From Lachnospiraceae bacterium (GTDB taxonomy: Bacteria > Pseudomonadota > Alphaproteobacteria > RF32 > CAG-239), in assembly GCA_963594125.1 (NCBI GenBank), contig CAVBCV010000001.1, positions 746-64,745 of the forward strand: a stretch of 64,000 nt of DNA, in the 5' to 3' direction. The position numbers were made by a program, and so were the translations under genes. Positions 7,800-39,536 of this stretch are shown one piece after another. Each line of letters starts with the position of its first letter. The first letter of the stretch is position 1. The notes under the pieces are model-generated. The model was not told the origin of the DNA, ran no database searches, and saw nothing but the letters and a program-made list of their open reading frames with translations.

Positions 7800-7874
7800 G
7801 CCGCTGTAGCTCAGTGGTAGAGCACGTCATTGGTAATGACGGGGTCGCAAGTCCGATTCTTGCCAGCGGCACCA
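7800..7874 (+). tRNA. tRNA-Thr with anticodon GGU.
   Basis: The sequence folds by hand into a cloverleaf. The acceptor arm is gccgctg/cagcggc, the D arm gctc-agtggta-gagc, the anticodon arm cgtca-ttGGTaa-tgacg, and the T arm gcaag-tccgatt-cttgc, followed by the discriminator a and an encoded CCA. Confidence 0.9.
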
Positions 7875-8906: not shown

Positions 8907-8919
8907 ATTTTAAACATTG

Positions 8920-8947
8920 TTGACACAGGATAAATACTCGCTATAAT
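8920..8947 (+). promoter_or_regulatory. Near-consensus sigma70-like promoter (TTGACA-N16-TATAAT) upstream of the SMR gene, leaving a 5' UTR of about 120 nt.
   Basis: ttgaca at 8920-8925 and tataat at 8942-8947. Confidence 0.6.
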
Positions 8948-9073
8948 GGATATTATTTTGCCGCCGGGTAAAGAGTTTGACACTATGTTTTTCTGTCATT
9001 AGGCCTTAGAAGACAGAAAGATTATAGTGTTTTTTGTTTTTAAAACCATACAAATTGAAAGAGGATTAAAATT

Positions 9074-9391
9074 ATGGCATGGATACATTTGTTAATTGCT
9101 GCAATGTTTGAAGTTGGTTGGCCGGTCGGCTTGAAAATGGCAGAAAGCTCCCCGTTTAAGCTGATGTGGCTTGGTTTTGCGGCCATTGCTATGATTTTTA
9201 GCGGTTTATTTTTGTATATGGCGCAAAAAACTATTCCCATCGGCACGGCTTATGCTGTTTGGACCGGTATCGGTGCAACCTGCACTTTTGTTGTCGGAAT
9301 ACTTTTCTTCAATGATACAGTTTCTTTAATTCGTTGTTTAGGAATTATATTTATTATTTTTGGTGTCGCCTGCTTAAAATATGGGCACTAA
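9074..9391 (+). CDS. sugE: Small multidrug resistance (SMR) family transporter, SugE/Gdx-like, 105 aa.
   Basis: The start MAWIHLLIAAMFEVGWPVGLK contains the conserved Glu in TM1, and the protein has four TM helices at the usual SMR size. Confidence 0.8.
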   Translation: MAWIHLLIAAMFEVGWPVGLKMAESSPFKLMWLGFAAIAMIFSGLFLYMAQKTIPIGTAYAVWTGIGATCTFVVGILFFNDTVSLIRCLGIIFIIFGVACLKYGH

Positions 9392-10256
9392 TCATTTATG
9401 ATTAATTTTTAAAGTTGGTATAACTAAATAAATTTGCAGATTTTTTAATTATTTTTATATAGCAAAAAAACAAATCATAAGAAAGGATTATTATCGCTTT
9501 AGGCAGTCAAAGCTCATAGTTGTGATACATCATTATAGAATTGCTTTTTTGCGGTGAAGTTGCTCGGAAATTTTCTAAATAGTGTATTTTTATTTGCAAA
9601 TTGACTTAACCTCTTGTCCTTAAGGGCGAGAAGTTGTAAATAAAAAACATATACACCAAAGGCGAACACCTATTATCTTGATTAAGTGTCATTGATGTCA
9701 CTTAATTGAATAACCTTTAACATGCCGCTGTCAAAGGTTAGGAGAAACACCTACTGAATAAGCAAGAACCTCTTTAACTCCTCGCACGTAAAGGCCTTGC
9801 TGAAATTTGAGGCGTTTTTGATTGATTGGGGCTGGAATTGGCTAAAGTGGTTAGGTCGGCGGCAATGGACTTTATACCGACTGCCGCAGTGCCTGCCGAT
9901 ATAGGACAGCTCTCATGGATAACAGGTTGAAATTTTTACTTTCGTAAAGAAAAGTGTATACTGATTCCGCTAATCAGTTGATTGCTCTGCACCTTTTGAT
10001 TTTATTCTTTTCTGCATAGACTCTGGCGTATATTTACTCAGTGCCCATAAACCAATCCAGAACATTTATGCGCTCAATACCTTTATTCTCTCCACGTCCA
10101 TAATCCAAAGTAAACTTATTTGTTAATTGTATTTAACAAAATTGAAGTTTTGCCATTTTTGTAAAATGAAGTTCAATGTATCAAATCCTATTTCAAACTA
10201 TCCTCAAACAACTTAATTTTCTGCTTAATCGCTTAAAGTATTATAATCTTGCAGGG

Positions 10257-10871
10257 TTACAATAGTTTGTGAATATCATATTCATCATAGCCTTCGTAAT
10301 AATAGCTTACATCAATGCCTTTCATAAAAACTTCGCGTTCATCAATTTTATCAGTTAGAGCATTTTTTAAAAGATGCTTTATTTCAATATCTTTAACAGG
10401 GCTTCTTTCCATTGCTGACAGATAATCATCTTTATCAATTTTATTCCAATCAACAACCCGCTGCAGCTCTTTTTTGAATATTAAATCCAGCCAAATTCTG
10501 GTAGCGCGTCCGTTTCCTTCTCGGAAAGGATGAGCGATATTCATTTCAACATATTTTTCAACAATTTCATCAAAAGTTGATTGCGGCATTTTATCAATAT
10601 GCTTTAAGGATTGCGCCAAAAACATTACCGGAGCAAATCTGAAACTGCCTTTGGATATGTTGACATCGCGCATTTTTCCGGCAAAATCATAAATATCTTC
10701 AAACAAATACTTATGAATCTGTTTTAATCCGGCAAAAGTGCCTACTTTTATTTGATTGATTTTACCACTGTCATAAAGTTTTATCGCTTTTCCTTTGCTT
10801 AGTTTTTCCTCAATCTTATTGAGCTCAATTTGACTAGTGATATTAAATTTGTTTTTTAAGACCATTTTCAA
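10257..10871 (-). CDS. fic: Fic/Doc family protein, a putative AMPylator toxin-like protein, 204 aa.
   Basis: Canonical FIC motif [12 protein letters not shown], with an upstream [21 protein letters not shown] region similar to FicT/VbhT-type Fic proteins. Confidence 0.85.
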
Positions 10872-10891
10872 TCCTTTTATCCGGTATTCTA

Positions 10892-10913
10892 AGCCTCCTT
10901 CACGGAGGCTTTT
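10892..10913. other. GC hairpin (gcctcc-ttcac-ggaggc) immediately downstream of the 547-aa ORF stop codon and 40 nt upstream of the Fic start codon. It is flanked by T5 on the + strand, so it may be an intercistronic processing or attenuation element.
   Basis: Inverted repeat seen directly in the sequence. Confidence 0.4.
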
Positions 10914-10918
10914 TAGGC

Positions 10919-12562
10919 TTATCTGCCATTCTGGCGGCGGAGGAGCATTAATTCCATACTGTTTTTGTTATCTCTCATTTGGCTAAACGATGGAGAAATT
11001 CTCGCTATCGTGTCCTGCTGTGGTCGTCCGGACAAAGATCTCAGATATGCGGCTTTGTCCATGTTGGTCTTTTCAGCGGCAGCATTTTGAGTTGCGGGCG
11101 CCGGAGTTTCAGCAACTGAATCGTTCTGAGCAGGCGACGGAGCGGCGGTTTCTGTGTTCGTGTTTTTAGAAGATGTTGACTGAGAACGCTGAGCCCCCGG
11201 TATACCGGTAATTACCGGCTTGTCTAAATCAAGAATTTCTTCATATTGAATTTCTGAAACACGTTCATTTTTTGACCATTTCGGGTAATTGTTCAAATAA
11301 TCTTTCGGCTCTTTTGGTTCGGGAGTTTTTTCCTTTTGGTTTTTTAACAAGTTAGCCATTTTATCCACACACCTTTTAGACAAACTTTTTTCTTCAAATT
11401 CCTTAACTTCTTCCGTCTTTTCAATAGGCATTTTTTCTTGCGGGTTAATCTTTAACAAAGAGTAATAATCAACCCCATTAATATTGTAAATTTGTTTTAA
11501 AGCTGCTTGATAATTTTTTTCATTTTCATTTGGTAGTAATACTCGCTCACCAGGATTTCCTAGAGCTTTATTGAGTTGTAAATTTATAGGCTTTTCTACT
11601 CGCCAATCTCGTTCTGATAGTTTGTCTTTTTGAAGCTCCATTACCTCTTTCAAATCATTAAAATATCTTTTTCGTTGTCCATCGTCCAAATCTTCTATTT
11701 TTTTTGCCTTATAATAACTAAGCGCAAAATCTGCCTGTTTTTTCATTCCATCGGCAATGTATAAGTGTTGCAATAAATTATTATATTGCTCAAAACTCAT
11801 GTTATCTTTAAATGGAAAAGCCTCTAGTTTTTCCATATGTTTAACAATAATGTCTACGTCATTTATTCTCCAATCATCCGGTACTTTCACATCTTCTTTC
11901 ATATATTGTTTAAAATTGACACCGCCGATTGTATAGGCAATGTTTAATTGTTTTTGATATTCCGCCTCATTATCCTTAAAATTTCCTTTACCATATCTCA
12001 AATAATTCTCTGTCATGTCAATATGATTCTTGAAATACCTATCGGCCCATCTATCCATCCACATTTTTTGTGTGCCGTTCATAATCAAGGACATATCTTT
12101 TTCAAAATCTTTGGGGTCAGAACTTAAGGGATTGACCTCGCCTTGTTGCACCGCCTCTTTATAAAAAGAAAACCCATGTGATCTATCAAAAACATTGACA
12201 TCGCCTGTTTTAATATATTCTTCTCTTAAATAAACCAGTTCTGCCATCTTGGCGGAGATTTCATCAGCCATACATAATTTATAATATTGTTCCGAGGAAA
12301 CACTAATGTTTTTAGACTTAAATCCTTTATTAGCATTACTACGATGCTTTTGTTCATGATAGAGGATGCAATCATGGCTATTTTTTTCAAAAAGCCACAT
12401 AAATACATCATCATCATGATAATTCATTGTTATTGTATTTGTAATAGGCGAAAAAAAACCTCCGCTATGATTTCCATACCCTGCAATCGTATCAACTTGA
12501 TAGTCAATTTTTTTCGTCCGAAAGTCGTTCGTTTGCTTTTTAAGGTCATCTGCCAAAGACAT
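10919..12562 (-). CDS. Hypothetical soluble protein of 547 aa with a single HExxH (HEQKH) motif and a low-complexity C-terminal tail rich in S/T/P/A/Q and ending in basic residues. It could be a zincin-like effector.
   Basis: Long ORF whose RBS aggagaag lies in the 22-bp gap after the upstream TerB-like gene. The sequence is YHEQKH at about residue 70, no TM segments, and a C-terminus of ...LLRRQNGR. Confidence 0.55.
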
Positions 12563-12584
12563 CTTGCTTCTCCTCTATCAAAAA

Positions 12585-13010
12585 CTATGCGCTTTCCATC
12601 ACTACCGCCGATTTTACCAACCAGGCTTTTCTTTCAAGCACCAATTCATTGATTTGCAAAACTTTTTCAGGTTCAATATTTAATTTTGCGGCAACTTTTT
12701 CAATAAAATTGACTTCTGCATCGCCTAATTCATCATCAACATGCGCCATTGTTAACAACTCACGTATCAGCGCAAGAGCTTTATGGCGGACTTTAATGAT
12801 ATTTGCAATTTCAGGAAGTAAAATATCTTCACCCATGGGAGCATTAATTTCCGCAACTTTGTTTTTGATGTTATAAATATTGACAATTTCATGGATGCAT
12901 TCGCGCTCGCGGTCATCAACACGTCCATCTGATTTTATTAAAAAAATCAGCGCGCGGACAAATGTTACTTTTTCAGACTCGCTTAATTGTTGTATATAAT
13001 CGTCTGCCAT
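12585..13010 (-). CDS. TerB-like (tellurite-resistance TerB family) domain protein, 141 aa.
   Basis: The segment KVTFVRALIFLIKSDGRVDDRERECIHEI and the overall helical composition resemble TerB or the DjlA N-terminal fold. It is the first gene of a three-gene minus-strand operon. Confidence 0.45.
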   Translation of the reverse strand: MADDYIQQLSESEKVTFVRALIFLIKSDGRVDDRERECIHEIVNIYNIKNKVAEINAPMGEDILLPEIANIIKVRHKALALIRELLTMAHVDDELGDAEVNFIEKVAAKLNIEPEKVLQINELVLERKAWLVKSAVVMESA

Positions 13011-13342
13011 TGCTATGCTCCTTTCTGATTAATATATCATAAAATTAGCATTAGTTATGTTAATATAATATTAAATTTTTATACAGCCACGCTTAGCTAT
13101 AAGCTCAATTTTCTGATTCAACAGCTTAAAATCATTAAAATTAGTCCGATAATTGCACAATAAAAGCGCACCATAAAAAGTTAAATTTACCCGCCTATCT
13201 TTAACTTTCTCAAAAAGAAAGTTAAAGATAAACCTATTACATTGAAAATTTTATTTATTGTGGTATAATGGTATTATCGTTTTAATAAGGCGGGTAATAT
13301 GGTTAAAGATAATTTTTTTATTATATAAAACAGGAAGCGAAA

Positions 13343-13948
13343 ATGTTTACAAAAGAAGAAATTCAAGAAGAACTTGATAAACAAAACTGGGAAAAACCTG
13401 AGCTGTTCTGGCAAAACCGCAAGTCTTCTGACGGCAAATATCTGTTATTCAGAGGACATGATGTTATTGATGATGCCTCCACCCAGCGCTACCAAAATGG
13501 AAACGGCAACGAGATTTCACTCATTCATGCTTCTCCCATATTTAAGGCGGTTGTTTCTCCGTGGAAATTTAAGGCAAGTAAGAATTATCAAAATTTTCCG
13601 GCTAATTTAGCTTTTGTTTCTGTTTATACCGGCGGCGCTAATAATAAATTTTATCCTGATGAAACACTGGAGTTTGTTTTAGCAGGCAAAGAAAAAGATA
13701 ACGGGGAAAGAATTGACAACATTACCAACTTTGATGAAAATAAACATTTTGAAACCGCCCTCACAAAAGAAAATAAAAAAATTGCAACATATCTGTACAA
13801 ATTTACTCAGGGCATGAACAAAGACAGCGTTATGATTGCCAAACTTGAAGATGGCTCCAAGCTCATGCGAATGCTGAAAGAAAACCAGAAACAAAAAAGC
13901 AATGCCATGTTTATGTCTATGATTCAAAACAACCAAAAAACATTATGA
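13343..13948 (+). CDS. Hypothetical protein of 201 aa, the first gene of a two-gene operon with the Rcl/metallophosphoesterase fusion.
   Basis: RBS aggaag upstream of the ATG, and a promoter-like TTGAAA-N16-TGgTATAAT at about 13242-13275. I found no recognisable motif; FRGHD and SLIHAS are too weak to call an ADP-ribosyltransferase. Confidence 0.5.
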   Translation: MFTKEEIQEELDKQNWEKPELFWQNRKSSDGKYLLFRGHDVIDDASTQRYQNGNGNEISLIHASPIFKAVVSPWKFKASKNYQNFPANLAFVSVYTGGANNKFYPDETLEFVLAGKEKDNGERIDNITNFDENKHFETALTKENKKIATYLYKFTQGMNKDSVMIAKLEDGSKLMRMLKENQKQKSNAMFMSMIQNNQKTL

Positions 13949-14004
13949 AAATCAATAATTTTGCATTAAAATTTGCTGACAGATAAAACATTATAGGAGT
14001 GTCT

Positions 14005-14979
14005 ATGATTACTTCGCCTCAAAATCTAAAAATAAAGAAAAAATCAATATATGTATTTTGCGCGGGACCGATTCAGGGCGCGCCTAATTGGCAAGTCGCA
14101 ATGCCAAACTGGCCTGATGTTACTTTTATCAATCCACGCCGCGAAAAAATCAGCGCTGATTTTGACTGGAACGAACAGGTTAAATGGGAAACAACAGGCT
14201 TACGCCTCAGTGATTTTATATTGTTTTGGATTCCGGCGGAAATTACTTCTATCGCCGGACGAGATTATGCGCAAACAACCAAAATTGAACTTATGGAAAA
14301 CTTGGTCAGAGGCAAAAACATTGTGCTTGGCATTGATCCTAAAGTACATACGCGGCATTATTTGACTTATAAATATCAGCAATATACCGGCGGACAACCG
14401 GTTTTTGATAATCTGCCGGATTGTTTGTCCGAGTTAAAAAAGCGCATTGATGCTAAAAACAAACGGCATAAAATATTTTTTACCTCAGACACGCATTTTT
14501 CATCTGAACGAGCATTTAGCCTTAGCCGTCGTCCTTTCTTTAGCGTTGAAGAAATGGACTGGTCTATGGTTGAACGATGGAATACCGCTGTTGGAATTAA
14601 TGACGATGTATACCATTTGGGCGATTTCGGTAATATTGAATTTGCGCAGTATTTAAATGGTAAAATTCATTTATTGTTAGGTAACTATGAACGCGATAAA
14701 AAATCATTAATCCCTGAAAATGTTGCGGAAATTATCAGCGATGATATTTATAAACTTAATTATCAAGACTATGAATTTTTATTAGCTCATGAGCCGGTAA
14801 AATTAAGAGAAAAAACCGAGTTTGGCTTATTCGGGCATATTCACAGCCGTCAGCCGGTTAAAAAATACGGATTAGATGTAGGGGTTGACGCTCATTATTT
14901 TACGCCCATTGATATGGAAACGGTTTTGTGGTACAAAAACGCTATTGAAAACTTTTACGACGACAATGTTTTTACATAG
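14005..14979 (+). CDS. Fusion protein of about 324 aa. The N-terminal domain resembles nucleoside 2-deoxyribosyltransferase / Rcl (DNPH1), a dNMP N-glycosidase fold. The C-terminal domain is a calcineurin-like metallophosphoesterase.
   Basis: The N-terminus IYVFCAGPIQGA parallels the Rcl motif VYFCGSIRGG. The C-terminal half carries the metallophosphoesterase motifs DTHFS, HLGDFGN, LLGNYERD and GHIH. I prefer the ATG at 14005 with RBS taggagtg over the GTG at 13999 given by the ORF track. Confidence 0.6.
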   Translation: MITSPQNLKIKKKSIYVFCAGPIQGAPNWQVAMPNWPDVTFINPRREKISADFDWNEQVKWETTGLRLSDFILFWIPAEITSIAGRDYAQTTKIELMENLVRGKNIVLGIDPKVHTRHYLTYKYQQYTGGQPVFDNLPDCLSELKKRIDAKNKRHKIFFTSDTHFSSERAFSLSRRPFFSVEEMDWSMVERWNTAVGINDDVYHLGDFGNIEFAQYLNGKIHLLLGNYERDKKSLIPENVAEIISDDIYKLNYQDYEFLLAHEPVKLREKTEFGLFGHIHSRQPVKKYGLDVGVDAHYFTPIDMETVLWYKNAIENFYDDNVFT

Positions 14980-15340
14980 TGCCACCGGATTGAACAATCT
15001 CATAATCGGCAATTTTGCCCGATTTATCAAAGCCGATGAACAAATTTGTTTCCTCAAAAGTGTAACTATCTTGAAACCACGACATAACCCAACCGATAAG
15101 CGGAATCATCCAATGGTACCTGCCCGCGCCGGATATTTTGCGATATTCATAATATTCTAAGTTGTTTTTCTGAAACACAAGGTTAGGCGTTCCAAATTTT
15201 TCTCTTACTTCAGATTTAGAAGAAACTTCCGTCATTTGGCTTTCAATTCTGACGCGGTTGTCTGCCAATTTGGTATTGCCGATAGTGGTGCTGCAAGAAC
15301 ACAGAATAATCATGGCGGCTATTAATAAAACTTTTTTCAT
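14972..15340 (-). CDS. Predicted lipoprotein of about 122 aa. Function unknown.
   Basis: Signal peptide with lipobox MKKVLLIAAMIILCSCS. The internal ATG at 15340 is preferred over the ORF-track start at 15406. Confidence 0.5.
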   Translation of the reverse strand: MKKVLLIAAMIILCSCSTTIGNTKLADNRVRIESQMTEVSSKSEVREKFGTPNLVFQKNNLEYYEYRKISGAGRYHWMIPLIGWVMSWFQDSYTFEETNLFIGFDKSGKIADYEIVQSGGTM

Positions 15341-15351
15341 ACTAACTGCTC

Positions 15352-15981
15352 CTATTGAACTTTGGCTAATCTGACAACAAAATCTTGCCCAAATTGTTTG
15401 TACCAATCATTTCTCTGATTGCCGGAAATTTCCGCCGATTTATCAATTATGCTGAAAGAATTGGCCTTAACATGCCCGTCTGCCGTTACTTCATTATCGG
15501 TTTTATTGAGCGCAAAGTGCCCGATATAAGTAATTTCTTGCGGACGTACCGTAAAGCGGATTTTGCTGTCGCCCTCATAATGCTCATCGGTTTCTACCAC
15601 GGTACGGGTCACTTGCGTGTTGCCATAGTATTCGGTTGTTGTATAAATGTATTGCAAATAAAGATTGGTTACCTCGTATGTGCCTATCGGCAACATAGCC
15701 GTATCATATTTATTGCCGCCTAAAATGGTGCTCATATAAAAAACTTCATTAGTTTTAACGTTTTTGAAAGCGATAATATCATTATAATTTACACCAAAAA
15801 AGCCATCGTCAGAAACGTTATCAGATAATGAGGTAATAACCACGCCGCGAGCGCCGCTGTTAAACAAAGCCGGACGAAATTGGCGGCTGGCGCGCAACAA
15901 ATCACTCTCATTCGGGGTTTGCGGAAAAGCGCACCCGACAACAGTCAAACAAACAATTAGCATTAAAAACAATTTACGCAT
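15352..15981 (-). CDS. Predicted lipoprotein of 209 aa. Function unknown.
   Basis: Signal peptide MRKLFLMLIVCLTVVGCAF with a lipobox Cys. Confidence 0.5.
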   Translation of the reverse strand: MRKLFLMLIVCLTVVGCAFPQTPNESDLLRASRQFRPALFNSGARGVVITSLSDNVSDDGFFGVNYNDIIAFKNVKTNEVFYMSTILGGNKYDTAMLPIGTYEVTNLYLQYIYTTTEYYGNTQVTRTVVETDEHYEGDSKIRFTVRPQEITYIGHFALNKTDNEVTADGHVKANSFSIIDKSAEISGNQRNDWYKQFGQDFVVRLAKVQ

Positions 15982-16135
15982 TGCCCACTCCTGATAAATA
16001 TCGGCATTTAAATTATTATCAAAACTCTTTATTTTAGCATATACTATAAAAACAAAATGTTATTTTCAACTACAATTTAGTATTTACCACAAATATAAAA
16101 TATATTTTTCTTGCCATATTAAGCATTTAAAAAGT

Positions 16136-19755: not shown

Positions 19756-20067
19756 TCAGCACTCCCAGCGGCAGAGTTTTAAGTCAACATGGGTTTCGTC
19801 TTTTAAGGTGACGCCCTCTTGCATTAAAAGAACTTTTTGTTCAGGCCAGCCTAAGACAAGGCGTCCGCTATGATTAACTATACGGTGGCACGGATAATTG
19901 CCGTAAAGCTCCGCATTGCGCAGCACCCAACCTACCAAACGGGCGTTTTTGCTTCTACCGATTAAACGGGCGATTTGCCCGTAAGTGGCAACTTTACCTT
20001 CGGGAACTTCTTCCACCACCGATAAAATTTCATATACTAAAGAATCGTCTAAGACCCGCTTGCTCAT
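19756..20067 (-). CDS. MGMT-family protein, the methylated-DNA-protein-cysteine methyltransferase DNA-binding domain (YbaZ/Atl-like), about 103 aa.
   Basis: PCHRIV active-site-type motif and YGQIARLIG helix-turn-helix. The start MSKRVLDD at 20067 is preferred. Confidence 0.7.
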   Translation of the reverse strand: MSKRVLDDSLVYEILSVVEEVPEGKVATYGQIARLIGRSKNARLVGWVLRNAELYGNYPCHRIVNHSGRLVLGWPEQKVLLMQEGVTLKDETHVDLKLCRWEC

Positions 20068-20068
20068 G

Positions 20069-20851
20069 TTATTCTTTCGGTTCAAGATAAGCACTGCTGC
20101 CAGCAAGCAATTTGTTAAAATTGCGGATATATTCAGCTTTGGTTAAGCAGTTGGCTTTGAGCTTTTCTTCAGATGTTTTATAAAGTTCTTTCCAATCGTC
20201 TTTGCTCATTTTATATTCGTCCGCATTATTAGCATTTTGCGTATAAATAAACATATAATCAGCATATTCACTTTCAGTGACGCAGCCGTCTTTGTTTTTA
20301 TCCATTTGAAAATAGTTTTGGCTTGCTAAATTGTCAGAAGCGGCGGCGAACATTTTATTGGCAACATCATTTGACGGCATCGCTTTTAACTTTTCAGCCT
20401 CAATACGGGCTTTTGCTATATCTTGCGTCATTTCTTCAGGCGATTTTGTTGCCATAACTTTGGCTTTTTCAAACATTGATAAGGTTTCTTGCTCAACTTC
20501 ATGATACATAAAATACGCATATTCGGTTTTATTTAACCGGCGGTCAGAATCTTTATCTTCTTGCTTAAATTTTTGTTGCCAACGAGCTTTTTTGGCGGCT
20601 TTATCCGCCGCAGAGGTTAGTGGTTCAGTGCTGATGCTTTTTAACATCAGAGCAAATTCATTTTCAGAGATAAAACCATCTTTGTTTACATCGGCGGCAT
20701 TAAAAGTGTCTAACAGTATTTTTTGATTTTGCGGCGAATTAAATTCATCTTTTATCGCCTGCCGCAGCTGCGCGGGCGATAATTCTTGCGCCACCGCGTT
20801 AAACGATAAAACAACCGCGCTTAAAACAATGCTTAAATTAAAAACTTTCAT
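20069..20851 (-). CDS. Secreted EF-hand calcium-binding protein, 260 aa.
   Basis: Signal peptide MKVFNLSIVLSAVVLSFNAVAQ and EF-hand loops DVNKDGFISENEF and DKNKDGCVTESEY. Confidence 0.6.
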   Translation of the reverse strand: MKVFNLSIVLSAVVLSFNAVAQELSPAQLRQAIKDEFNSPQNQKILLDTFNAADVNKDGFISENEFALMLKSISTEPLTSAADKAAKKARWQQKFKQEDKDSDRRLNKTEYAYFMYHEVEQETLSMFEKAKVMATKSPEEMTQDIAKARIEAEKLKAMPSNDVANKMFAAASDNLASQNYFQMDKNKDGCVTESEYADYMFIYTQNANNADEYKMSKDDWKELYKTSEEKLKANCLTKAEYIRNFNKLLAGSSAYLEPKE

Positions 20852-20952
20852 AAAATTTTCTCCTCAAAACATAGCGCGCATTTTACCGTGAAGATGTTAA
20901 ATTAGCAACAAAAAAGCGTCCTTTGTGGAGGACGCTTGTAAAAAAAATAATC

Positions 20953-21963
20953 TCATTTCAAAAAATCAGAAGAAACAGTCCTGCCGCACTTTTTAATATT
21001 ATTGATAATATTATTCAGTCCGGCGGAGATAATTCCGGTGTTCTCCTTATTTTCAAACAGTTGGTAGTTTTTACGAACATTATCATTCGTAATATTTACC
21101 ATAATCATGTTTGCTCCGGCAGAAAAACCTAAGGCTTGCCCGTTAGGAGCCAATGCTTCCAAAGCCGTTGTTGTGACCATATCCGCTGTTGGATTTAAGA
21201 TGCGGCAAACAGCAATAGCCTTCAACACCAATGACAAGCTGCCTTTGTTAACTACGCTAAGCGGGGTTTGCGGATGCGGAATGAAAGGGCTTATGCCGAT
21301 AAAATCGGAATGCACTTTTTTGAAATACACAATGTCTTCCGCGATAGAGCGCACTGTTTGCCCAGGCAATCCGATAATATTTCCGGTTCCGGTGTAATAG
21401 TGTAGCGCAGAAAGCAAATTAAGCGTATTATTCCGCAGCATCCAACTTTGATGCGGATGATGGCGCTTGTACAAACGCTCGTCCGAAGTTTCAATCTTCA
21501 GCAAATAGCCAAACGCACCGGCATTATGAAAATCCCGCAAATCGCGACCATCAAGTTCACCACAGCTTAAAATTACTCTGAGACCTAAGCCATTTATCAT
21601 TTTGATAAAAGCTATAAAGTCCTCTCTAGAGTACTCTTCACTTTCACCGGATTGCAGAACAATGTACTTAAAACCAAGTTGTTTGGCTAATTCGGCGTGT
21701 TCAGCAATTCCGTTGAAAGATAACGTATATCGCCTCAGCTCTATGTTCTCTTGACGTAACCCGCAATAGTGGCAGTGATTGTGGCAAACGTTTGAAAATT
21801 CAAGTAATGCCGCCATTTTTACCGTGTCACCACAGTATTTCTTTCTGACTTCATCGGCTTTGGCAAACAAGACATCATCATACTCTGATGTTGTTAAAAT
21901 TGTTTCAATTTGTTCAACACTTAAATCTTGTGCGTTGATTGCGTTTTTAATAATACTATTCAT
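20953..21963 (-). CDS. hydE: Radical SAM protein of the HydE/BioB/PylB family, [FeFe]-hydrogenase maturase HydE-like, about 336 aa.
   Basis: CHNHCHYC (the CX3CX2C cluster motif) sits about 60 aa from the preferred start MNSIIKNAINAQ at 21963, and the length is typical of HydE. It is clustered with a HydG-like gene and a TM1266-like regulator. Confidence 0.6.
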   Translation of the reverse strand: MNSIIKNAINAQDLSVEQIETILTTSEYDDVLFAKADEVRKKYCGDTVKMAALLEFSNVCHNHCHYCGLRQENIELRRYTLSFNGIAEHAELAKQLGFKYIVLQSGESEEYSREDFIAFIKMINGLGLRVILSCGELDGRDLRDFHNAGAFGYLLKIETSDERLYKRHHPHQSWMLRNNTLNLLSALHYYTGTGNIIGLPGQTVRSIAEDIVYFKKVHSDFIGISPFIPHPQTPLSVVNKGSLSLVLKAIAVCRILNPTADMVTTTALEALAPNGQALGFSAGANMIMVNITNDNVRKNYQLFENKENTGIISAGLNNIINNIKKCGRTVSSDFLK

Positions 21964-22154
21964 ACATAATTTTTTATTAGTTACACAAAAATTCAAATTC
22001 AGGGGTATTATAAAGTGTAATACCATCAAAGTCAAATTATTTTGTCCAAAAAAGACAAATTTTATATAAATGTGCATGGGTGATAAAAAATATTTGCTTT
22101 TAAGAGATATTGTATTCTTATTTAGGCATAAGTTAATATTTTAAGGAAAAAATC

Positions 22155-22820
22155 ATGAAAAAATTATCGTTATTAGGCGTTTTGTGTTTAATGCTTTCAG
22201 CTTGCGAAATGGAGCTAGACATACCGGTTAAAATCAGCGAATTGTTATCGGCTGAAACGCAAAATGTTAGCGGCGTGCTTTCAGTTGAAGTTTCTGCCTG
22301 CTCAAGTTATGAAGACTCGCGGATTCCATCCGAATCATTAATTGAAGTGCAGAAAAAAATTAAAACCATAATTCCCTCTGCCGAATATGTGCAGTGCTAT
22401 AAAAAAGAAATGACCTCTTACGCTGAGTTTAATTTTAAGGTTAATGTTAAACACGATGTTGAAACGCCTTCCGACGGTATTTCATTGTTAAGCAACAACT
22501 CCGGCGCGCTTGGCATGCATATTCCGAACGATGTTACCGAACAAATTAAAGAAGCTTTATATGGCGATAGCAACATATCAATCATTTACAACGTTACTAA
22601 CGATACGGATAAACCGATGAAATTTACGGTAGTTTCTTCATATTTGAACGATCAGCCGTTCCCGCTCGGTAACAGTTTTGTATTAGAGCCAAACTATTCA
22701 GTAAATATTCGCTTATCTGATGTTGCTAAAGATTATATCCTGCAAGGAAACAACTTTATTATCCTGATACCGGATAATGATGAACCTGAAGCAAGCGAAA
22801 GCTCTGAGCAAGCCGAATAA
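22155..22820 (+). CDS. Predicted lipoprotein of 221 aa. Function unknown.
   Basis: Signal peptide with lipobox MKKLSLLGVLCLMLSAC and an acidic C-terminus. Confidence 0.5.
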   Translation: MKKLSLLGVLCLMLSACEMELDIPVKISELLSAETQNVSGVLSVEVSACSSYEDSRIPSESLIEVQKKIKTIIPSAEYVQCYKKEMTSYAEFNFKVNVKHDVETPSDGISLLSNNSGALGMHIPNDVTEQIKEALYGDSNISIIYNVTNDTDKPMKFTVVSSYLNDQPFPLGNSFVLEPNYSVNIRLSDVAKDYILQGNNFIILIPDNDEPEASESSEQAE

Positions 22821-22825
22821 AAGCA

Positions 22826-22863
22826 AAAGCCCGACAGCAATTTTGTTATCGGGCTTTTATTTT
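22826..22863. terminator. Bidirectional intrinsic terminator hairpin (aaagcccg...cgggcttt, followed by tatttt) between convergent genes.
   Basis: An 8-bp GC-rich stem with a T-run on the + strand and an A-run/T-run on the opposite strand. It lies between the stop codons at 22820 (+) and 22866 (-). Confidence 0.55.
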
Positions 22864-22865
22864 GC

Positions 22866-24281
22866 TTAAAATCTGAAATCGCGTTCGCCTTGTTTGATTT
22901 TAGCGAGATTTGCTATTGTAATTTGCCGAACTTTATCACTTTTTATGTTGGCAAGTTCTTTATTGATTATCTCCTCGCCCAATTTTTTAGTTTCGGCAGA
23001 GGCATAATCTTGCAAAAACTCCTGTAAAGTCATTAAGGCGTTAGGGTGGCAGCAATTAAGTATCTGCATTTTTTTACACAATTCCATAAAGCGGTCGCCG
23101 GTGCGTCCTTCGCGATAACATGCGGTGCAAAAACTCGGGATATAACCCATGCTCAAAAGCCAACGCACAACCTCATCTAAGGTGCGCTGGTCCGAAACGT
23201 CAAATTGTTCGGTATCGTGCTCGCGGGTTATATTGGTATACCCGCCTACGCTGGTGCGAGATGCGCCGGAAATTTGCGAAATTCCGTAATGAATAACGCG
23301 GCTGCGGCAGGCTTCGCTCTCACGGGTGGAAATAATCATGCCGGTATAAGGGGTAGAAACGCGCACACAAGCAATAATCTTGGCAAAAATATCATCATCA
23401 ATGCCGTTGTCAAAAGCATTGGGGTCAATATCATCGGCATGCTTAATGCGCGGAAATGAAATTGTGTGCGGACCAACGCCGTGAACCGCCTCTAAGTGCT
23501 CAGCGTGCATTAAAAGCGCGGCAAATTCATATTTATAGCCCTCAAGCCCAAACAATACGCCAAGCCCGACATCATCAATACCGCCTTCCATGGCTCTATC
23601 CATAGCCTCAGTATGATAGGCGTAATTGTGCTTAGGTCCGGTCGGGTGCAGTTTTTCATACGACTCTTTATTATATGTTTCTTGAAACAGAATATATGTT
23701 CCGATACCGGCTTCTTTCAGTTTGCGATAGTTTTCAACGGTAGTGGCGGCAATATTAACATTAACGCGGCGAATTGAGCCGTTTTTGTGCTTTACCGAAT
23801 AAATGGTTTTAATGCAGTCTAAAATATATTCAATCGGGTTGTTAATCGGGTCTTCACCGGCTTCAATCGCCAAGCGCTTGTGCCCCATATCCTGCAAGGC
23901 AATAACTTCGGCTTTAATTTCTTCCTGCGTTAGTTTTTTGCGCATAATATGCTTGTTTTTGGCATGATACGGGCAATAAGTGCAGCCGTTGACGCAATAA
24001 TTGGAAAGATAAAGCGGGGCAAACAGCACAATACGGTTGCCATAAAAGTCTTTTTTAAATTGCTCGGCAAGGGCAAAAATTTCAGCGTTTTGCTCAGGTA
24101 AATCACAGGCGAGCAAAATGGAAGCCTCGCGGTGGGTTAAACCTTTGCGCAATTTAGCTTTGGCAATTATCTGATTAATCAATTCCTGATTATGCTTGTT
24201 AGCCTCGGCATAAGCCAATGTTGCGAGCACTTCATCATGGCAGATAAACTCTTCTGCCTTGAGCGATTTGGGATTATACAT
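22866..24281 (-). CDS. hydG: Radical SAM protein of the HydG/ThiH family, [FeFe]-hydrogenase maturase HydG-like (tyrosine lyase), 471 aa.
   Basis: N-terminal CVNGCTYC (CX3CX2C) at about residue 96, and a C-terminal Cys cluster CTACYREGRTGDRFMELCKKMQILNCC approximating the HydG auxiliary CX2CX22C motif. The length of 471 aa fits HydG and is too long for ThiH. Confidence 0.6.
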   Translation of the reverse strand: MYNPKSLKAEEFICHDEVLATLAYAEANKHNQELINQIIAKAKLRKGLTHREASILLACDLPEQNAEIFALAEQFKKDFYGNRIVLFAPLYLSNYCVNGCTYCPYHAKNKHIMRKKLTQEEIKAEVIALQDMGHKRLAIEAGEDPINNPIEYILDCIKTIYSVKHKNGSIRRVNVNIAATTVENYRKLKEAGIGTYILFQETYNKESYEKLHPTGPKHNYAYHTEAMDRAMEGGIDDVGLGVLFGLEGYKYEFAALLMHAEHLEAVHGVGPHTISFPRIKHADDIDPNAFDNGIDDDIFAKIIACVRVSTPYTGMIISTRESEACRSRVIHYGISQISGASRTSVGGYTNITREHDTEQFDVSDQRTLDEVVRWLLSMGYIPSFCTACYREGRTGDRFMELCKKMQILNCCHPNALMTLQEFLQDYASAETKKLGEEIINKELANIKSDKVRQITIANLAKIKQGERDFRF

Positions 24282-24376
24282 AAAATTTCCTTTCTTATGG
24301 GTCAGAAAAACCTTCCCCGTCAGTTAAAACTGATGTGAACATAAAGCCTTTATTGGCATTTGGCAAGTTTTTTATT

Positions 24377-24616
24377 TTAAGCAAAAACCGTTTTGCTGCT
24401 AACGCCTTCCAGAGCGCCGATTTTACCTGACAAAGCGGAAATAATATCTTGCGGAGCGTCAAGCGCTATACTGATAATCGCAACTTGTTTGGCTTTATAC
24501 GGGATTCCCATACGACCGACAATATAGGCGCGGTATTCATGCAACAAGGCATTAAGTTTTTCAACACTATCCTGATTTTTTACCAAAATGGCAAGTAAAG
24601 CTATGCGTGTTTCCAT
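24377..24616 (-). CDS. Small ACT/NikR-C-like protein resembling the TM1266-type putative iron-only hydrogenase system regulator, 79 aa.
   Basis: Size, composition and position directly downstream of the HydG-like gene match that family as I remember it. There is no stronger evidence. Confidence 0.4.
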   Translation of the reverse strand: METRIALLAILVKNQDSVEKLNALLHEYRAYIVGRMGIPYKAKQVAIISIALDAPQDIISALSGKIGALEGVSSKTVFA

Positions 24617-24618
24617 GA

Positions 24619-25038
24619 TTATTCTCCTTTATAGGTCAGCGGGTATTTAACCACAATATTATAAACAACTTTTGAAGCATAATTTTCGCTCATACTCTCC
24701 CACGGGCGATAATAATAACCGGTGATAACAACTCTTCCGGGGTGGGTGGCGCGGAATGAATAGGTTTTAACGCCGCCAACTCCGACCATACTGTCACTGG
24801 CATTATCCTGACGATAACTCTCGGTGATGTTGGTGATAATGTTTTGCGGCTCCGGAGTTGTGAAAAATGCCCAAGAATATCCGGTGGTGGGGTTTTCAGG
24901 TAATTCAATATTAACAGAATCGCCCAAAGAGAGTTCCAGAGTTTGCCCGTTGTTATTATATTTAAGCTTGTAAGTTTCAGTGCTTGCGCATCCGCCAAAC
25001 ATTAAAACCGCAAACAAAGCATAAAGAACTTTTTTCAT
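24619..25038 (-). CDS. Chagasin-family (I42) peptidase inhibitor lipoprotein, 139 aa.
   Basis: Lipobox MFGGCAS and the chagasin signature NPTTGYSW, plus YYRPWES. Confidence 0.65.
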   Translation of the reverse strand: MKKVLYALFAVLMFGGCASTETYKLKYNNNGQTLELSLGDSVNIELPENPTTGYSWAFFTTPEPQNIITNITESYRQDNASDSMVGVGGVKTYSFRATHPGRVVITGYYYRPWESMSENYASKVVYNIVVKYPLTYKGE

Positions 25039-25051: not shown

Positions 25052-26047
25052 TTACTGCACAGTTGCGTCCATGGGGTTAAAACGTACTAATATTGATTTC
25101 CATTTGTCATATTTATCAGGGTATTTTTCAGCAAAAACTTTATAAATATTTACGCCGTTTTTGTTTTGGCACGACCAAATTGCGCGGCGGGCACTTTCAG
25201 CAATGGCTCTAAAATGCGGATCAGTGCTCATACGTGATGAGTTTACAACCTGAGCATCGCGAACCGTGCCGTCTTTGTTTAAGGTGGCCCTGACTTCAAT
25301 TATCATACCCTCAATGCCTTGCGCTCCGGGGTCAAGATTCCAACATTCGCGCAAATAGCCGCCGATGGCGTCAGTTTCAGTAATGGTAAGCTCGCTGAAA
25401 TATGAGCCTCCGGTGCCGCCCTCTATACCCATATTGGCAACGGCAGTGCCTTCTTTGATTACCGCCGGTGACGCGGTCTCGCCGATTTCTTTTTCCATGC
25501 TGTTAACCGAATCCATCAAGCTCTTTAACGGATTGGCAATTGTTTTGTTTTGAGCCGGTTGTTTAGCGTTAGGTTTTGCTGCCTGTTTGGGCGCCGACGG
25601 AGTTTTATCGGCAGGTTTAGGAGCCGGTTTCGGCTTAGGCTGCGGCTTAGGCGCCGGTTTGGGCGCTGGCTTAGGTTTAGGCTTGGTATCCGGTTTCGGA
25701 GCCGGTTTTTCAGGCTCGGGCGGAGTAGTATCTAAAAAGTCTTTTTTAGGTTGTTCCGTTTTAGTTTCTTCCGGCAAAGGCGGTAATTCCGGCGCTTTTG
25801 CCTCTTCATGAGTCCAATTAGGCGCAGGCTTTTTTTCCGGCGCGGTGGCTTTTTTATCTTCTTTACCAAAAACAGCTTTAGGCGGCAAGTTGGTCATCTC
25901 GGCAAGTTTAACGTCTTTTAAGTCAACAATAATCGGAGCTTGTCCGGTTTCTATCTTAGCACGCCCGAAAAACGGCAAATCCAGCACTAAAAGCAGAAAA
26001 ACCGTTATATGTAAAGCTATTGACATGTAAAGATAGCGTTTATTCAT
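25052..26047 (-). CDS. tolA: TolA/TonB-family energy-transducer protein, 331 aa, with an N-terminal TM anchor, a Pro/Lys-rich (KPXP)n spacer and a C-terminal globular domain.
   Basis: TM helix MSIALHITVFLLLVL followed by repeats PKPKPAPKPAPKPQPKPKPAPKP. It is the third gene after tolQ and tolR. Confidence 0.6.
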   Translation of the reverse strand: MNKRYLYMSIALHITVFLLLVLDLPFFGRAKIETGQAPIIVDLKDVKLAEMTNLPPKAVFGKEDKKATAPEKKPAPNWTHEEAKAPELPPLPEETKTEQPKKDFLDTTPPEPEKPAPKPDTKPKPKPAPKPAPKPQPKPKPAPKPADKTPSAPKQAAKPNAKQPAQNKTIANPLKSLMDSVNSMEKEIGETASPAVIKEGTAVANMGIEGGTGGSYFSELTITETDAIGGYLRECWNLDPGAQGIEGMIIEVRATLNKDGTVRDAQVVNSSRMSTDPHFRAIAESARRAIWSCQNKNGVNIYKVFAEKYPDKYDKWKSILVRFNPMDATVQ

Positions 26048-26056
26048 AGCTTACGC

Positions 26057-26494
26057 CTATTTCTCCTTAACAAGCGGACGAGCCTCGGTTTTAAGACCGA
26101 CTTTATCTATCCCCGCCTCTTTTAACAGCGCCATCAGGTTAATAACTCTGCCGTATTCCGACATGGTATCGCCGGAAATGGTAACAGTAGCGTCGGCATT
26201 CTCGCCGCGAATCGCCTTAACTTTTGCCACAACTTTATCAGCCGGAATTTCGGTTTTACCGATGTAATAGTAGCCGTCTTTATCAACGCTGATGTTGATT
26301 GAGGTTTCTTTGCCTTCTAACGCCTTTCCGCCGACTTTAGGCAAATCAAGCGCAATGCCGGAGGTCATGAGCGGAGCGGCAACCATAAACACCACCAACA
26401 AAACCATCATGACATCCATTAAATTGGTAATGTTAATATCGGCGTTGCGGCGGCTCGGGCGGCGTCCTGATGAAAAACGAGAATTGTACATCAT
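26057..26494 (-). CDS. tolR: TolR/ExbD biopolymer transport protein, 145 aa.
   Basis: The start NITNLMDVMMVLLVVFMV (ExbD/TolR TM with conserved Asp), the size, and its position after tolQ. Confidence 0.8.
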   Translation of the reverse strand: MMYNSRFSSGRRPSRRNADINITNLMDVMMVLLVVFMVAAPLMTSGIALDLPKVGGKALEGKETSINISVDKDGYYYIGKTEIPADKVVAKVKAIRGENADATVTISGDTMSEYGRVINLMALLKEAGIDKVGLKTEARPLVKEK

Positions 26495-26508
26495 GTTTTG
26501 TTCTCCGT

Positions 26509-27258
26509 TTATTCGCCTGCCATTTCAGCTTTTAAGGTGCTGTCATCAATTTCACGCGATAAAATGGTTGAAAATTCAGCAATAAAGTTTTCAAGCCGTT
26601 TAGCATAGCGGTCAACATCGGTAGTAATCATGTTGTAGGTAACCACCGCCGGAATTGCGGCGATTAAGCCGAAAGCAGTGGTAAACAAAGCTTCGGCAAT
26701 ACCGGGAGCCATAGCGGAAAGCGAGTTGCTTTGGGTGGCGGCAATGGCGTTAAAGCTGTTAATAATGCCCCAAACCGTGCCGAACAAGCCGACAAGCGGA
26801 GCAACGGAACCGGTTGAAGCCAAAAAGCCCAAGCGATTGTCCATATCGTCAAGCTCTTTATCCATTGCCACCATCATGGCTTTTTCAACACGCTGTTGAA
26901 GCGATGCGCCGCGCAAGCCGCGGTCAGTTTTAGACTTCATGATATTGGAGCGGCGCCATTCCTTCATGGCAGCCATAAACATTGCCGACATCGGGTCGCG
27001 CGGGTGGTTGCCGATGGCGTCATACAAGCGGTCAAGCGAGCCGCCCGACCAAAAAGCCTCTTCAAACTTCTTAGTATTGCGTTTTACCTGCCGCAAAGTG
27101 GCAAATTTTTCAAAAATGATTGTCCACGACCAAACTGAGGCGGCAATTAAGCCAATCATCACAACTTTGGTAACCGTGTCGGAAGCCCACACCAAATCCC
27201 ACATAGACATTTGATTCGCCGCGGTGTTGACGGCATCAGAAAGCGCTTGTGTTTCCAT
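26509..27258 (-). CDS. tolQ: TolQ/ExbB (MotA/TolQ/ExbB proton-channel family), 249 aa.
   Basis: Three TM helices and the conserved LGLFGTVWGII and AIAATQS regions. Confidence 0.8.
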   Translation of the reverse strand: METQALSDAVNTAANQMSMWDLVWASDTVTKVVMIGLIAASVWSWTIIFEKFATLRQVKRNTKKFEEAFWSGGSLDRLYDAIGNHPRDPMSAMFMAAMKEWRRSNIMKSKTDRGLRGASLQQRVEKAMMVAMDKELDDMDNRLGFLASTGSVAPLVGLFGTVWGIINSFNAIAATQSNSLSAMAPGIAEALFTTAFGLIAAIPAVVTYNMITTDVDRYAKRLENFIAEFSTILSREIDDSTLKAEMAGE

Positions 27259-27383: not shown

Positions 27384-27391
27384 GCAATCTC

Positions 27392-39535: not shown

Positions 39536-39536
39536 A

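Follow-up and report, generated by a model that had tools for sequence, protein, structure and literature searches.

Four genes occupied positions 20953-24616 of the window (the whole 64-kb stretch of DNA analyzed here): a HydE-like gene, a DUF7424 lipoprotein gene, hydG, and a TM1266-like gene (Table 1); this ORF layout agreed with that given in the earlier note. hydE and hydG were separated by ~0.9 kb, and in a related locus (L096) by one further gene. A 95-bp gap separated the TM1266 gene from hydG, which lies downstream of it, and a 2-bp gap separated it from a chagasin-like gene on its upstream side. The start codon of hydE was set at M39 of the full ORF, since the HydE proteins of relatives begin at the equivalent of this residue. 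Among the loci checked, the DUF7424 gene was restricted to the window's own genus (L006, L007, L016, L096, and L097); this lipoprotein is a lineage-specific neighbor, outside the recognized maturation system.

Table 1. Features of the hyd region, in coordinates of the window.
Feature	Position	Strand	Description
hydE cassette	20856..22065	(-)	1.2 kb; promoter, gene, and terminator
Intrinsic terminator (predicted)	20914..20937	(-)	9-bp stem with 5 GC pairs, followed by a T-run; 15 bp past the hydE stop
hydE	20953..21963	(-)	336 aa, counted from the ATG at 21963; radical-SAM maturase, divergent clade of alphaproteobacterial HydE
HydE-like full ORF	20953..22077	(-)	374 aa; ATG at 21963 is the likely true start
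Sigma-70 promoter (predicted)	22007..22035	(-)	TTGACT-17-TATAAT, 11/12 consensus; ~45 bp upstream of the ATG at 21963
DUF7424 lipoprotein gene	22155..22820	(+)	221 aa; Pfam PF24199, 125 bits; between hydG and hydE, convergent with hydG
hydG	22866..24281	(-)	471 aa; radical-SAM tyrosine lyase by NCBIfam TIGR03955
TM1266-family gene	24377..24616	(-)	79 aa; NCBIfam TIGR03959 and Pfam PF21699

The GC content of the window was 0.40, and its gene content was of the free-living Gram-negative type. HydG was 98% identical to that of a human-gut MAG, MGYG-HGUT-00610. The closest genomes were human-gut MAGs labeled "uncultured Alphaproteobacteria bacterium", with which synteny was held over 20 kb, and the nearest genomes overall were gut and rumen alphaproteobacterial MAGs. 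The source is an uncultured human-gut alphaproteobacterium, not an endosymbiont, and its previous description as AT-rich and endosymbiont-like was not upheld. The view that hydrogenase genes were unexpected here leaned on that description and on the Bat genes, and was similarly unsupported. The Bat operon was first described from an anaerobe, Bacteroides fragilis.

The 471-aa protein scored 914.5 bits against the HydG profile TIGR03955 (cutoff, 312.15), with residues 2-471 aligned to positions 1-470 of the 470 in the profile. It also matched Thermoanaerobacter italicus HydG (PDB 4WCX) over its full length (544 bits), with the C-terminal cluster domain and the GPHT histidine both covered, and no notable difference was found. 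The two cysteine motifs on which the HydG assignment had originally been proposed were both confirmed: the radical-SAM CX3CX2C (C96/C100/C103), aligned to 4WCX, and the C-terminal CX2CX21CC (C385/C388/C410-C411). In the latter, C385, C388, and C411 corresponded to the "syCtaC...nfC" stretch of 4WCX, C411 being aligned with the third auxiliary-cluster cysteine (CX2CX22C), and the check suggested earlier for the residues of the dangler-Fe cluster thus gave a positive result. These residues belong to a HydG-only domain of ~90 aa, which ThiH does not have. The GVGPHTIS segment was conserved between HydG and 4WCX; the histidine of GPHT, residue 272 here, is a ligand of the dangler Fe in HydG enzymes. 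The identity of the protein as ThiH was rejected: 283.9 bits with the ThiH profile (cutoff, 380), and 182 bits with the ThiH structure (PDB 7PD1), relative to which HydG has the extra C-terminal domain. The dN/dS value of hydG (vs L016) was 0.015, and in a phylogenetic tree the HydG of the genus grouped with other alphaproteobacterial MAGs, with L012 and L014 as the sister group.

The assignment of the 79-aa protein to the TM1266 type was likewise borne out: 108.5 bits against TIGR03959 (cutoff, 60.8), 107 bits against PF21699, and a full-length match with PDB 2NZC (E = 2.4e-11). Like TM1266 itself (2NZC), the protein is of the ACT-like family, scores as an NCBIfam equivalog, and adjoins hydG, and no difference was seen. 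The annotation of the family is "iron-only hydrogenase system putative regulator", and its role is only putative. Of the hydG loci compared, 13 of the 14 alphaproteobacterial ones and 44 of the 66 others had a TM1266 gene immediately preceding hydG (57/80 overall).

The 336-aa protein was also HydE-like, as proposed, and its CHNHCHYC sequence constituted the CX3CX2C motif (C60/C64/C67). The score with the NCBIfam HydE profile (TIGR03956) was 251.5-252.0 bits, 2.6 bits below the cutoff of 254.6, while two sister sequences exceeded this cutoff (P0123, 279.4 bits; P0129, 261.4 bits). Identities as PylB (128-129 bits; cutoff, 348) and BioB (95.8 bits; cutoff, 225) were rejected, and the structure matches had the same order: 238, 83, and 49 bits for Thermotoga maritima HydE, PylB, and BioB, respectively. 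The reassignment to ThiH and BioB, which the earlier note had named as refuting its reading, was therefore not supported by the profile scores. In the alignment with T. maritima HydE (PDB 3CIW, 5FEW, and 7O1O), which was ungapped over ~281 residues and supported a TIM barrel of the HydE type, the radical-SAM cysteine triad, T269, M291, K309, and L157 were conserved, while the C-terminal CX7CX2C motif of the auxiliary cluster was absent from the window HydE sequence. The dN/dS value of hydE was 0.086.

The predicted promoter of hydE was the top site in a consensus scan of positions 19600-27600, and falls within the 374-aa ORF extension. With this promoter and the predicted terminator, hydE forms a self-contained unit. 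By blastn analysis, homology to two relatives (L016 and L006) ended at position 22066 of the window and resumed at ~20855; in both of these, ~50 bp separated the flanks of the cassette and hydE was missing at the site. On the other hand, L096 and L097 both carried the cassette at the corresponding site, whereas hydE was positioned after an MGMT-like gene in L098. The hydE cassette is a clean presence/absence difference among close relatives, newly described here. A scan with HydE peptides (sensitive to 88-92% identity) gave zero matches in 185,579 species-representative genomes, including that of L016. Together with the absence of the cassette in L016 and L006, this null result means that, in at least part of the genus, genomes have hydG but either lack this hydE or harbor a more divergent copy.

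Neither hydF nor hydA lies in the 64 kb, as noted previously; three approaches confirmed this. No Fe_hyd_lg_C or HydF domain was detected by a Pfam scan of all non-overlapping window ORFs of at least 150 aa, a six-frame search of the 64 kb for H-cluster motifs found nothing, and in tblastn analyses of the same 64 kb, HydF matched only the MnmE GTPase (62917-63387) and HydA, HydB, and HydC of a relative had no match. The same arrangement was found in relatives: within 10 kb of hydG, none of the 14 alpha/proteobacterial loci contained hydE, hydF, or hydA (0/14 for each), whereas hydF and hydE were near in 45 and 35, respectively, of 66 mostly clostridial loci. HydABC-type group A [FeFe] hydrogenases were present in related MAGs, either beside TM1266-hydG or elsewhere. 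In L014, hydC-hydB-hydA was divergent from TM1266-hydG, and adjacency of HydG and HydA was also found in NCBI accessions MBO4294868 (HydG) and MBO4294872 (HydA). A MAG encoding a HydE of the same clade (MEE6208170) also encoded a group A hydrogenase (MEE6207437; P0479), 733 accession numbers apart. Another locus (L100) encoded HydCBA, complete with the three H-cluster motifs, amid LptD/SurA/GapR/TolB genes, with hydG not nearby.

A similar scattering is known from gut-derived uncultured alphaproteobacteria, Azospirillum sp. CAG:239 and CAG:260 and Acetobacter sp. CAG:977 (Degli Esposti et al. 2016, Biol Direct 11:34, PMC4967309), in which HydE, HydF, HydG, HymABC-type and type A hydrogenases, and PFO are at scattered accessions (Table 1 of PMC4967309). 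The HydE, HydF, and HydG accessions are far apart, and hence at different loci, a pattern common to the window; neither the polymorphism of the hydE cassette nor the substitutions in the HydE pocket (see below) is described there. It is from this literature that HydF is probably also a component in this alphaproteobacterial group (PMC4967309). In contrast, the clostridial TM1266-hydE-hydG-hydF operon (e.g., L001, L022, and L072) contains the same three families, with TM1266 directly upstream, together with hydF, and has hydE between TM1266 and hydG; the window has no hydF, and its hydE stands apart as a monocistronic cassette on the far side of the lipoprotein gene, which is unrelated. Identities with the operon-encoded proteins were 77-81% for HydG and 57-67% for TM1266, but only 33-37% for HydE. 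The hyd set of the window thus looks orphaned because this group disperses its hyd genes, unlike the clostridial operon, and the term "orphan" used for the trio was not well supported, since TM1266-hydG of relatives is routinely apart from hydE, hydF, and hydA.

These genes very probably function in H-cluster maturation in an uncultured alphaproteobacterium living anaerobically in the gut, with hydF and HydABC encoded elsewhere; the presence of hydA and hydF in the remainder of the source genome is itself highly likely. According to the enzymatic steps borrowed from work on the Thermotoga, Shewanella, and Clostridium enzymes, HydG would cleave tyrosine and use its C-terminal cluster as the site for assembling an Fe(II)(Cys)(CO)2(CN) synthon. 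HydE would adenosylate the cysteine sulfur of the synthon and strip the cysteine backbone to produce an Fe(I)-S(CO)2(CN) unit. HydF would take the HydE product and pass the [2Fe] subcluster to an HydABC-type group A [FeFe] hydrogenase, which would likewise be encoded away from the window. Against this explanation, the window HydE is 2.6 bits under the profile cutoff and is devoid of residues reported to be important for the function of T. maritima HydE, hydE is missing from its site in L016 and L006, and the peptide scan of species-representative genomes found no HydE of 88-92% identity. Of the two alternatives in the earlier note, a hydrogenase elsewhere with an anaerobic lifestyle was favored by the gut and rumen relatives, the dispersal, HydABC in related MAGs, and the literature on gut alphaproteobacteria (PMC4967309). 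The other, a different organometallic product, was unlikely for HydG, given ~80% identity to operon-encoded HydG, and retained a small plausibility for HydE only, because of its pocket.

Published work on HydE reports M224 as a ligand of the Fe(I)(CO)2(CN) species, conservation of a threonine and two arginines in the S3 pocket, and impaired maturation on mutation of one of these residues (PMC10114646, PMC11826987); T269, M291, and K309 have described roles near SAM and the complex-B site (PMC11826987). The S3 residues R54, T134, and R155, together with M224, were replaced by A51, I131, G152, and F221 in the window HydE (R54A, T134I, R155G, and M224F in T. maritima numbering), in addition to R159K, Y145L, and Y306F. 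All 12 members of the clade, a single cluster at 50% identity in which G152, F221, K156, and F303 were invariant, contained [A/I/V]-[I/V]-G-F at positions 54/134/155/224, in contrast with R-T-R-M in 107 of 110 ordinary HydE proteins; the top-pocket residues T266, M288, and K306 (T269, M291, and K309 of T. maritima) and the radical-SAM cysteines were kept in 12/12. Among 152 diverse HydE representatives, R54 was kept in 128, T134 in 117, R155 in 121, and M224 in 141, and ~12 carried H-F-G-M, two of which were HydE-HydG fusion proteins. Since the fusions, which are necessarily maturases, have H-F-G/A-M at these positions, pocket changes are tolerated in a working HydE. Judged by sequence, the S3 substitutions mark a variant HydE, not exclusion from the family. 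The replacement of the S3 residues in this clade in spite of strong purifying selection is new here.

It is possible, although doubtful, that HydG and TM1266 work for an ordinary hydrogenase while the HydE clade departs mechanistically from the Thermotoga paradigm within the same pathway. The hydrophobic S3 pocket, with Met224 replaced by Phe, would not hold or dimerize the Fe(I) product, which would instead be released as a mononuclear species or handed over in another manner. This is consistent with the division between the clade and ordinary HydE, the intact top pocket, the published role of M224 and of the S3 residues, and the strong purifying selection on the new pocket state; however, the S3 triad is not universal, as seen in the H-F-G-M proteins, and a second, canonical hydE may exist in the same genomes.

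A truly orphan set, with both an [FeFe] hydrogenase and HydF missing from the genome and with HydG and HydE either making another organometallic or radical-derived product or decaying as relics, is improbable. The absence of hydA and hydF from the 64 kb, the remodeled HydE pocket, and the presence or absence of hydE among close relatives are in line with such a set, but every HydG-specific feature is kept in a protein ~80% identical to operon-encoded HydG, and strong purifying selection on both hydG and hydE indicates that they are not relics. Furthermore, HydABC occurs in related MAGs, one of which also has an HydE of the same clade, and the group as a rule keeps its hyd genes dispersed, by the count of 14 loci and the literature (PMC4967309). 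The same identity of ~80% to clostridial HydG might be taken for an assembly or binning artefact, in which clostridial hyd genes were joined onto an alphaproteobacterial contig, but there is scarcely any chance of this: the order TolQRA-I42-TM1266-hydG-DUF7424 recurs in L006, L007, L016, L017, L096, and L097 (assembled independently from separate samples), the region has a uniform GC content, and HydG of the genus clusters with alphaproteobacterial MAGs. That the proteins are ThiH and BioB or PylB, for thiamine or biotin synthesis, has a negligible probability, because, although the radical-SAM/BATS fold is common to all and Pfam gives Radical_SAM and BATS only, TM1266 lies directly upstream and the C-terminal domain of HydG aligns to 4WCX, in addition to the profile scores above.

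Overall, this is an ordinary hydrogenase-maturation system, and the HydE with a rebuilt inner pocket is the sole unusual feature of the set. We tentatively consider that genomes still maturing an HydABC hydrogenase may have no HydE other than that of this alphaproteobacterial clade, a proposal with a real but minority chance of being correct. If so, the clade would represent a working natural HydE that lacks Met224 as well as the S3 site (Arg54/Thr134/Arg155), at which, in current models, the Fe(I)(CO)2(CN)S units are held and dimerized; dimerization inside HydE would then be dispensable, or would take place elsewhere, e.g., on HydF. In that case, the presence and absence of hydE across sister species whose HydG is 98% identical would constitute a natural knockout series.

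The four genes at the hydG locus had the positions and sizes described in the earlier note, and are listed in the table together with the other features of the window mentioned here. Over its entire length, the 471-aa protein matched the HydG equivalog of NCBIfam (914.5 bits, against a cutoff of 312). Its score on the ThiH profile was 283.9 bits, below the cutoff of 380. Among solved structures, HydG (4WCX) was aligned over the full length with 544 bits, including the HydG-only C-terminal domain, versus 182 bits for ThiH (7PD1). The auxiliary-cluster cysteines (C385, C388, and C411) were present alongside the radical-SAM cysteines (C96, C100, and C103) and the GPHT histidine (residue 272), and both the identification as HydG and the C-terminal cluster check proposed for it were borne out. 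The 79-aa protein exceeded the cutoff of the TM1266 equivalog (108.5 bits; cutoff, 60.8) and also matched PDB 2NZC, in agreement with its earlier reading as TM1266-type.

Features of the window, by position
Feature	Position	Strand	Size or remark
Phage family GP30.3 match	1099..1728		
tRNA-Thr	7800-7874		
Low-GC stretch	7800..16000		GC, 0.34-0.36
Serine-recombinase remnant	7827..8906		
Fic gene	10257..10871		
MGMT-like gene	19756..20106		
hydE terminator	20937..20914	-	strong, own
HydE-like ORF	20953..22077	-	374 aa
hydE promoter	22035..22007	-	TTGACT-17-TATAAT, near-consensus
Lipoprotein gene (DUF7424)	22155..22820	+	221 aa
hydG	22866..24281	-	471 aa
Small TM1266-type ORF	24377..24616	-	79 aa
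Chagasin-type (I42) peptidase inhibitor, lipoprotein	24619..25038	-	upstream of TM1266-type gene
TolA, TolR, TolQ	25052..27258	-	upstream of chagasin-type gene
BatD-like gene, VWA plus TPR gene, VWA gene	37826..42252		Bat "aerotolerance" operon type

The HydE-like ORF was 100% identical to a public NCBI protein (P0268) from a 135,118-bp contig. The preferred start codon is the ATG at 21963 (336 aa), because relatives start there, the promoter lies inside the longer ORF, and homology to hydE-less relatives ends at 22066. This protein scored 252 bits on the NCBIfam HydE equivalog, 2.6 bits below the cutoff, versus 128 bits for PylB and 96 bits for BioB; its sister sequences P0123 and P0129 exceeded the HydE cutoff (279 and 261 bits, respectively). 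Solved structures ranked in the same order: 238 bits for HydE from Thermotoga maritima, 83 for PylB, and 49 for BioB. Cysteines C60, C64, and C67 were found, and no auxiliary-cluster motif was detected in this protein. The proposed HydE-like reading holds, although the score is slightly under the equivalog cutoff. ThiH, BioB, and PylB identities were rejected on profile scores and structure ranking, and these together with the cysteine motifs contradict the refuting case named beforehand (471-aa protein as ThiH and 336-aa protein as BioB). Near-identical proteins already carry HydG and HydE annotations in public metagenome-assembled genomes (MAGs).

The low HydE profile score is explained by the pocket of this protein. 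Across 110 ordinary HydE proteins, 100 columns have a conservation of 95% or more; the window HydE keeps 71 of these, and the losses were concentrated in the inner S3 pocket. Since the alignment with T. maritima HydE (Tm) was ungapped over 281 residues, the residues could be mapped directly: Tm R54, T134, R155, M224, R159, Y145, and Y306 correspond to A51, I131, G152, F221, K156, L142, and F303 in the window HydE. The pattern [A/I/V]-[I/V]-G-F-K-[L/I]-F was common to 12/12 members of the alphaproteobacterial clade to which this protein belongs, versus R-T-R-M-R-Y-Y in 107/110 ordinary HydE. The radical-SAM cysteines and Tm T269, M291, K309, and L157 were kept in the clade, which formed a single 50%-identity cluster with its next relative at 44% in a search of 1.84 billion representatives. 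In HydE crystals, Tm M224 is a ligand of the Fe(I)(CO)2(CN) species, and S3 has a conserved threonine and two conserved arginines, maturation being impaired when one of these is mutated (PMC10114646). In the dimer proposed as the product, the cyanides are in contact with R54, T134, R155, and T269 (PMC11826987). Among 152 diverse HydE proteins, R54 was retained in 128, T134 in 117, R155 in 121, and M224 in 141, phenylalanine at the last position being rare (4/152). Other variants exist, including an H-F-G-M group with two HydE-HydG fusions of 881 and 906 aa (HydE, 371 and 348 bits; HydG, 631 and 607 bits, respectively); variant pockets in such fusions indicate that the S3 triad is not indispensable to a maturase. 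These fusions (P0528 and P0533) also had an extra N-terminal stretch of ~95 aa and the pocket H-F-G/A-M. No paper on natural variation at these pocket positions was found in the literature searched.

With its own promoter and terminator, hydE forms a mobile-looking unit. A 1.2-kb segment (20856..22065) was cleanly missing from two close relatives, L016 (L016:12132-12276) and L006 (L006:3473-3798), in which HydG was 98% identical to that of the window and only ~50 bp separated the DUF7424 and EF-hand genes. L096 and L097, which are more distant (86% nucleotide identity), carry hydE at the same site, so that the difference is more simply read as a loss in the L016/L006 line. The neighbourhood is rearranged in L098, where the gene encodes a HydE of 72% identity and follows the MGMT-like gene. 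A scan of species-representative genomes, including that of L016, using HydE peptides kept in 88-92% relatives, gave no HydE match; the L016 genome either is without a window-type hydE or has a more divergent copy. Gene decay was rejected because purifying selection on hydE and hydG is strong: dN/dS was 0.086 (window versus L096) and 0.099 (L098 versus L010) for hydE, and 0.015 (window versus L016) for hydG.

Several other features were observed around the locus. The short MGMT-like protein of the window has the DNA_binding_1 domain only, with the active-site motif PCHRIV; its gene, which shares sequence with the 3' end of the EF-hand gene by overlap, was not present in L016, and in L098 it is immediately upstream of hydE. 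In the related species L096, hydG is separated from the DUF7424 gene by a 454-aa gene without a Pfam match (L096:5158-6522), which was missing from the window and L016. After tolQ-tolR-tolA, the I42 inhibitor lipoprotein gene and TM1266-hydG were found instead of tolB-pal; in the relative L100, tolB is at a separate site beside ruvX (L100:16370-17683). The I42 gene ends only 2 bp before the TM1266-type gene, suggesting co-transcription.

No hydA or hydF was found in the window, as previously noted: Pfam searches with every non-overlapping ORF of 150 aa or more detected neither Fe_hyd_lg_C nor HydF domains, a six-frame search detected none of the three H-cluster motifs, tblastn with HydF matched MnmE alone, and tblastn with HydA, HydB, and HydC of a relative gave no match. 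The description of the set as apparently orphan was thus correct in that the genes are real and both partners are absent from the window, but the orphan look itself probably results from the limited length of the window and from the tendency of this lineage to keep its hyd genes scattered. Among the 80 genome loci with the most similar HydG (14 alpha-/proteobacterial and 66 others, mostly Clostridia), TM1266 was beside hydG in 13/14 alpha-/proteobacterial loci, while hydF, hydE, and hydA were each within 10 kb of hydG in 0/14. In the 66 other loci, hydF was adjacent in 45 and hydE in 35. Dispersal is the rule in the window's group; the adjacency in the other, mostly clostridial loci is the classical operon TM1266-hydE-hydG-hydF (e.g., L001). 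An assembly chimera was rejected because the gene order recurs in independent assemblies.

In a neighbour-joining HydG tree, the window grouped with L016 and L017, and the sister group consisted of L012 and L014, both alphaproteobacterial MAGs. In L014, hydC-hydB-hydA is divergent from TM1266-hydG, and the HydA belongs to the trimeric type associated with NuoE/NuoF, named alphaproteobacterial iron hydrogenase at NCBI; the same adjacency was found in consecutive NCBI accessions (MBO4294868, HydG; MBO4294872, HydA). Every named protein among the best 120 HydA matches was from "Alphaproteobacteria bacterium" MAGs. In L100, the surroundings of HydCBA are unmistakably alphaproteobacterial (LptD, SurA, GapR, and TolB); hydG is not nearby, and the HydA has the motifs TSCCPAW, MPCTAKKWE, and EVMACPGGCIAGGG. 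A link between a hydrogenase and the window's HydE clade was obtained in one MAG, in which a clade HydE (MEE6208170) and an "NADH-dependent [FeFe] hydrogenase, group A6" (MEE6207437) are in the same accession block. Among 20 HydA clusters, none was linked by accession block to the window's own species (HydG MDY4885005.1); only more distant relatives were linked. For the gut alphaproteobacteria CAG:239, CAG:260, and CAG:977, a published list contains HydE, HydF, HydG, PFO, and hydrogenases of the HymABC type and of "type A" under scattered accessions (Degli Esposti et al. 2016, PMC4967309). A full-text literature search for RF32/CAG-239 hydrogenases returned nothing useful.

In the HydG tree (loci L016-L095), the alphaproteobacterial sequences formed two groups, with clostridial HydG interleaved; identity across phyla was 76-81%. 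This suggests either that HydG is extremely conserved or that it was transferred between Clostridia and Alphaproteobacteria of the gut. The top-scoring HydG matches, P0001 and P0002 (L001:10001-11896; 631 and 627 aa), were rejected as close relatives: these clostridial gene calls have an internal duplication of ~160 residues, which may be a genuine tandem duplication or may stem from the assembly.

The view of the genome as endosymbiont-like was not supported. The closest loci were from human-gut "uncultured Alphaproteobacteria bacterium" MAGs, MGYG-HGUT-00610 (L016) and ERR2619727_bin.69 (L017), each encoding a HydG of 98% identity to that of the window. L016 was syntenic with the window along all of its 21 kb, and most genes had a protein identity of ~90-99%. 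The window contains mnmE-mnmG-rsmG-parA-parB, IalB, MlaE, TolQRA, and BatA-D-like genes at 40% GC, and a desulfoferrodoxin adjoins hydE in a rumen relative. The host is a gut organism, free-living in an anaerobic habitat, and is not an endosymbiont. Hydrogenase genes had also been considered unexpected beside Bat genes; however, this operon type is typical of anaerobes, and the first description of Bat genes was reportedly from Bacteroides fragilis, an anaerobe; they are therefore no argument against a hydrogenase.

The low-GC stretch looks like an integrated-element remnant. The tRNA-Thr, the only Rfam match in the window, abuts the serine-recombinase remnant (Recombinase and Zn-ribbon domains only), and the Fic gene and several family-less genes lie in the same stretch, parts of which (13.3-16 kb) adjoin hydE in L098. 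The GP30.3 match (Pfam PF08010, 104 bits) is beside an HD-domain protein gene.

By analogy with model enzymes (PMC8855341; PMC8162317; PMC10114646; PMC11826987), HydG would make an Fe(Cys)(CO)2(CN) synthon from tyrosine, a 5'-deoxyadenosyl radical in HydE would attack the synthon cysteine sulfur before removal of the carbon backbone, and the product would pass to HydF and then HydA. Both hydF and hydA are presumably carried by the source genome. HydG and the top half of HydE are competent at the sequence level, and suitable hydrogenases are present in relatives. As found, the significance is limited: the seemingly orphan maturases are those of a gut anaerobe with presumably scattered hyd genes, and a hydrogenase toolkit in gut alphaproteobacteria has already been published. 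This fits published claims of a full [FeFe]-hydrogenase toolkit in some of these bacteria, which have been used in debates on hydrogenosome origin. The remaining interest lies in the presence/absence polymorphism of hydE and the HydE pocket variant. The HydE mechanism is still under study, in particular the site at which the two Fe(I) units are retained and coupled, and a conserved clade without M224 and the S3 Arg/Thr/Arg, beside a canonical HydG, offers a ready test of whether this site is needed.
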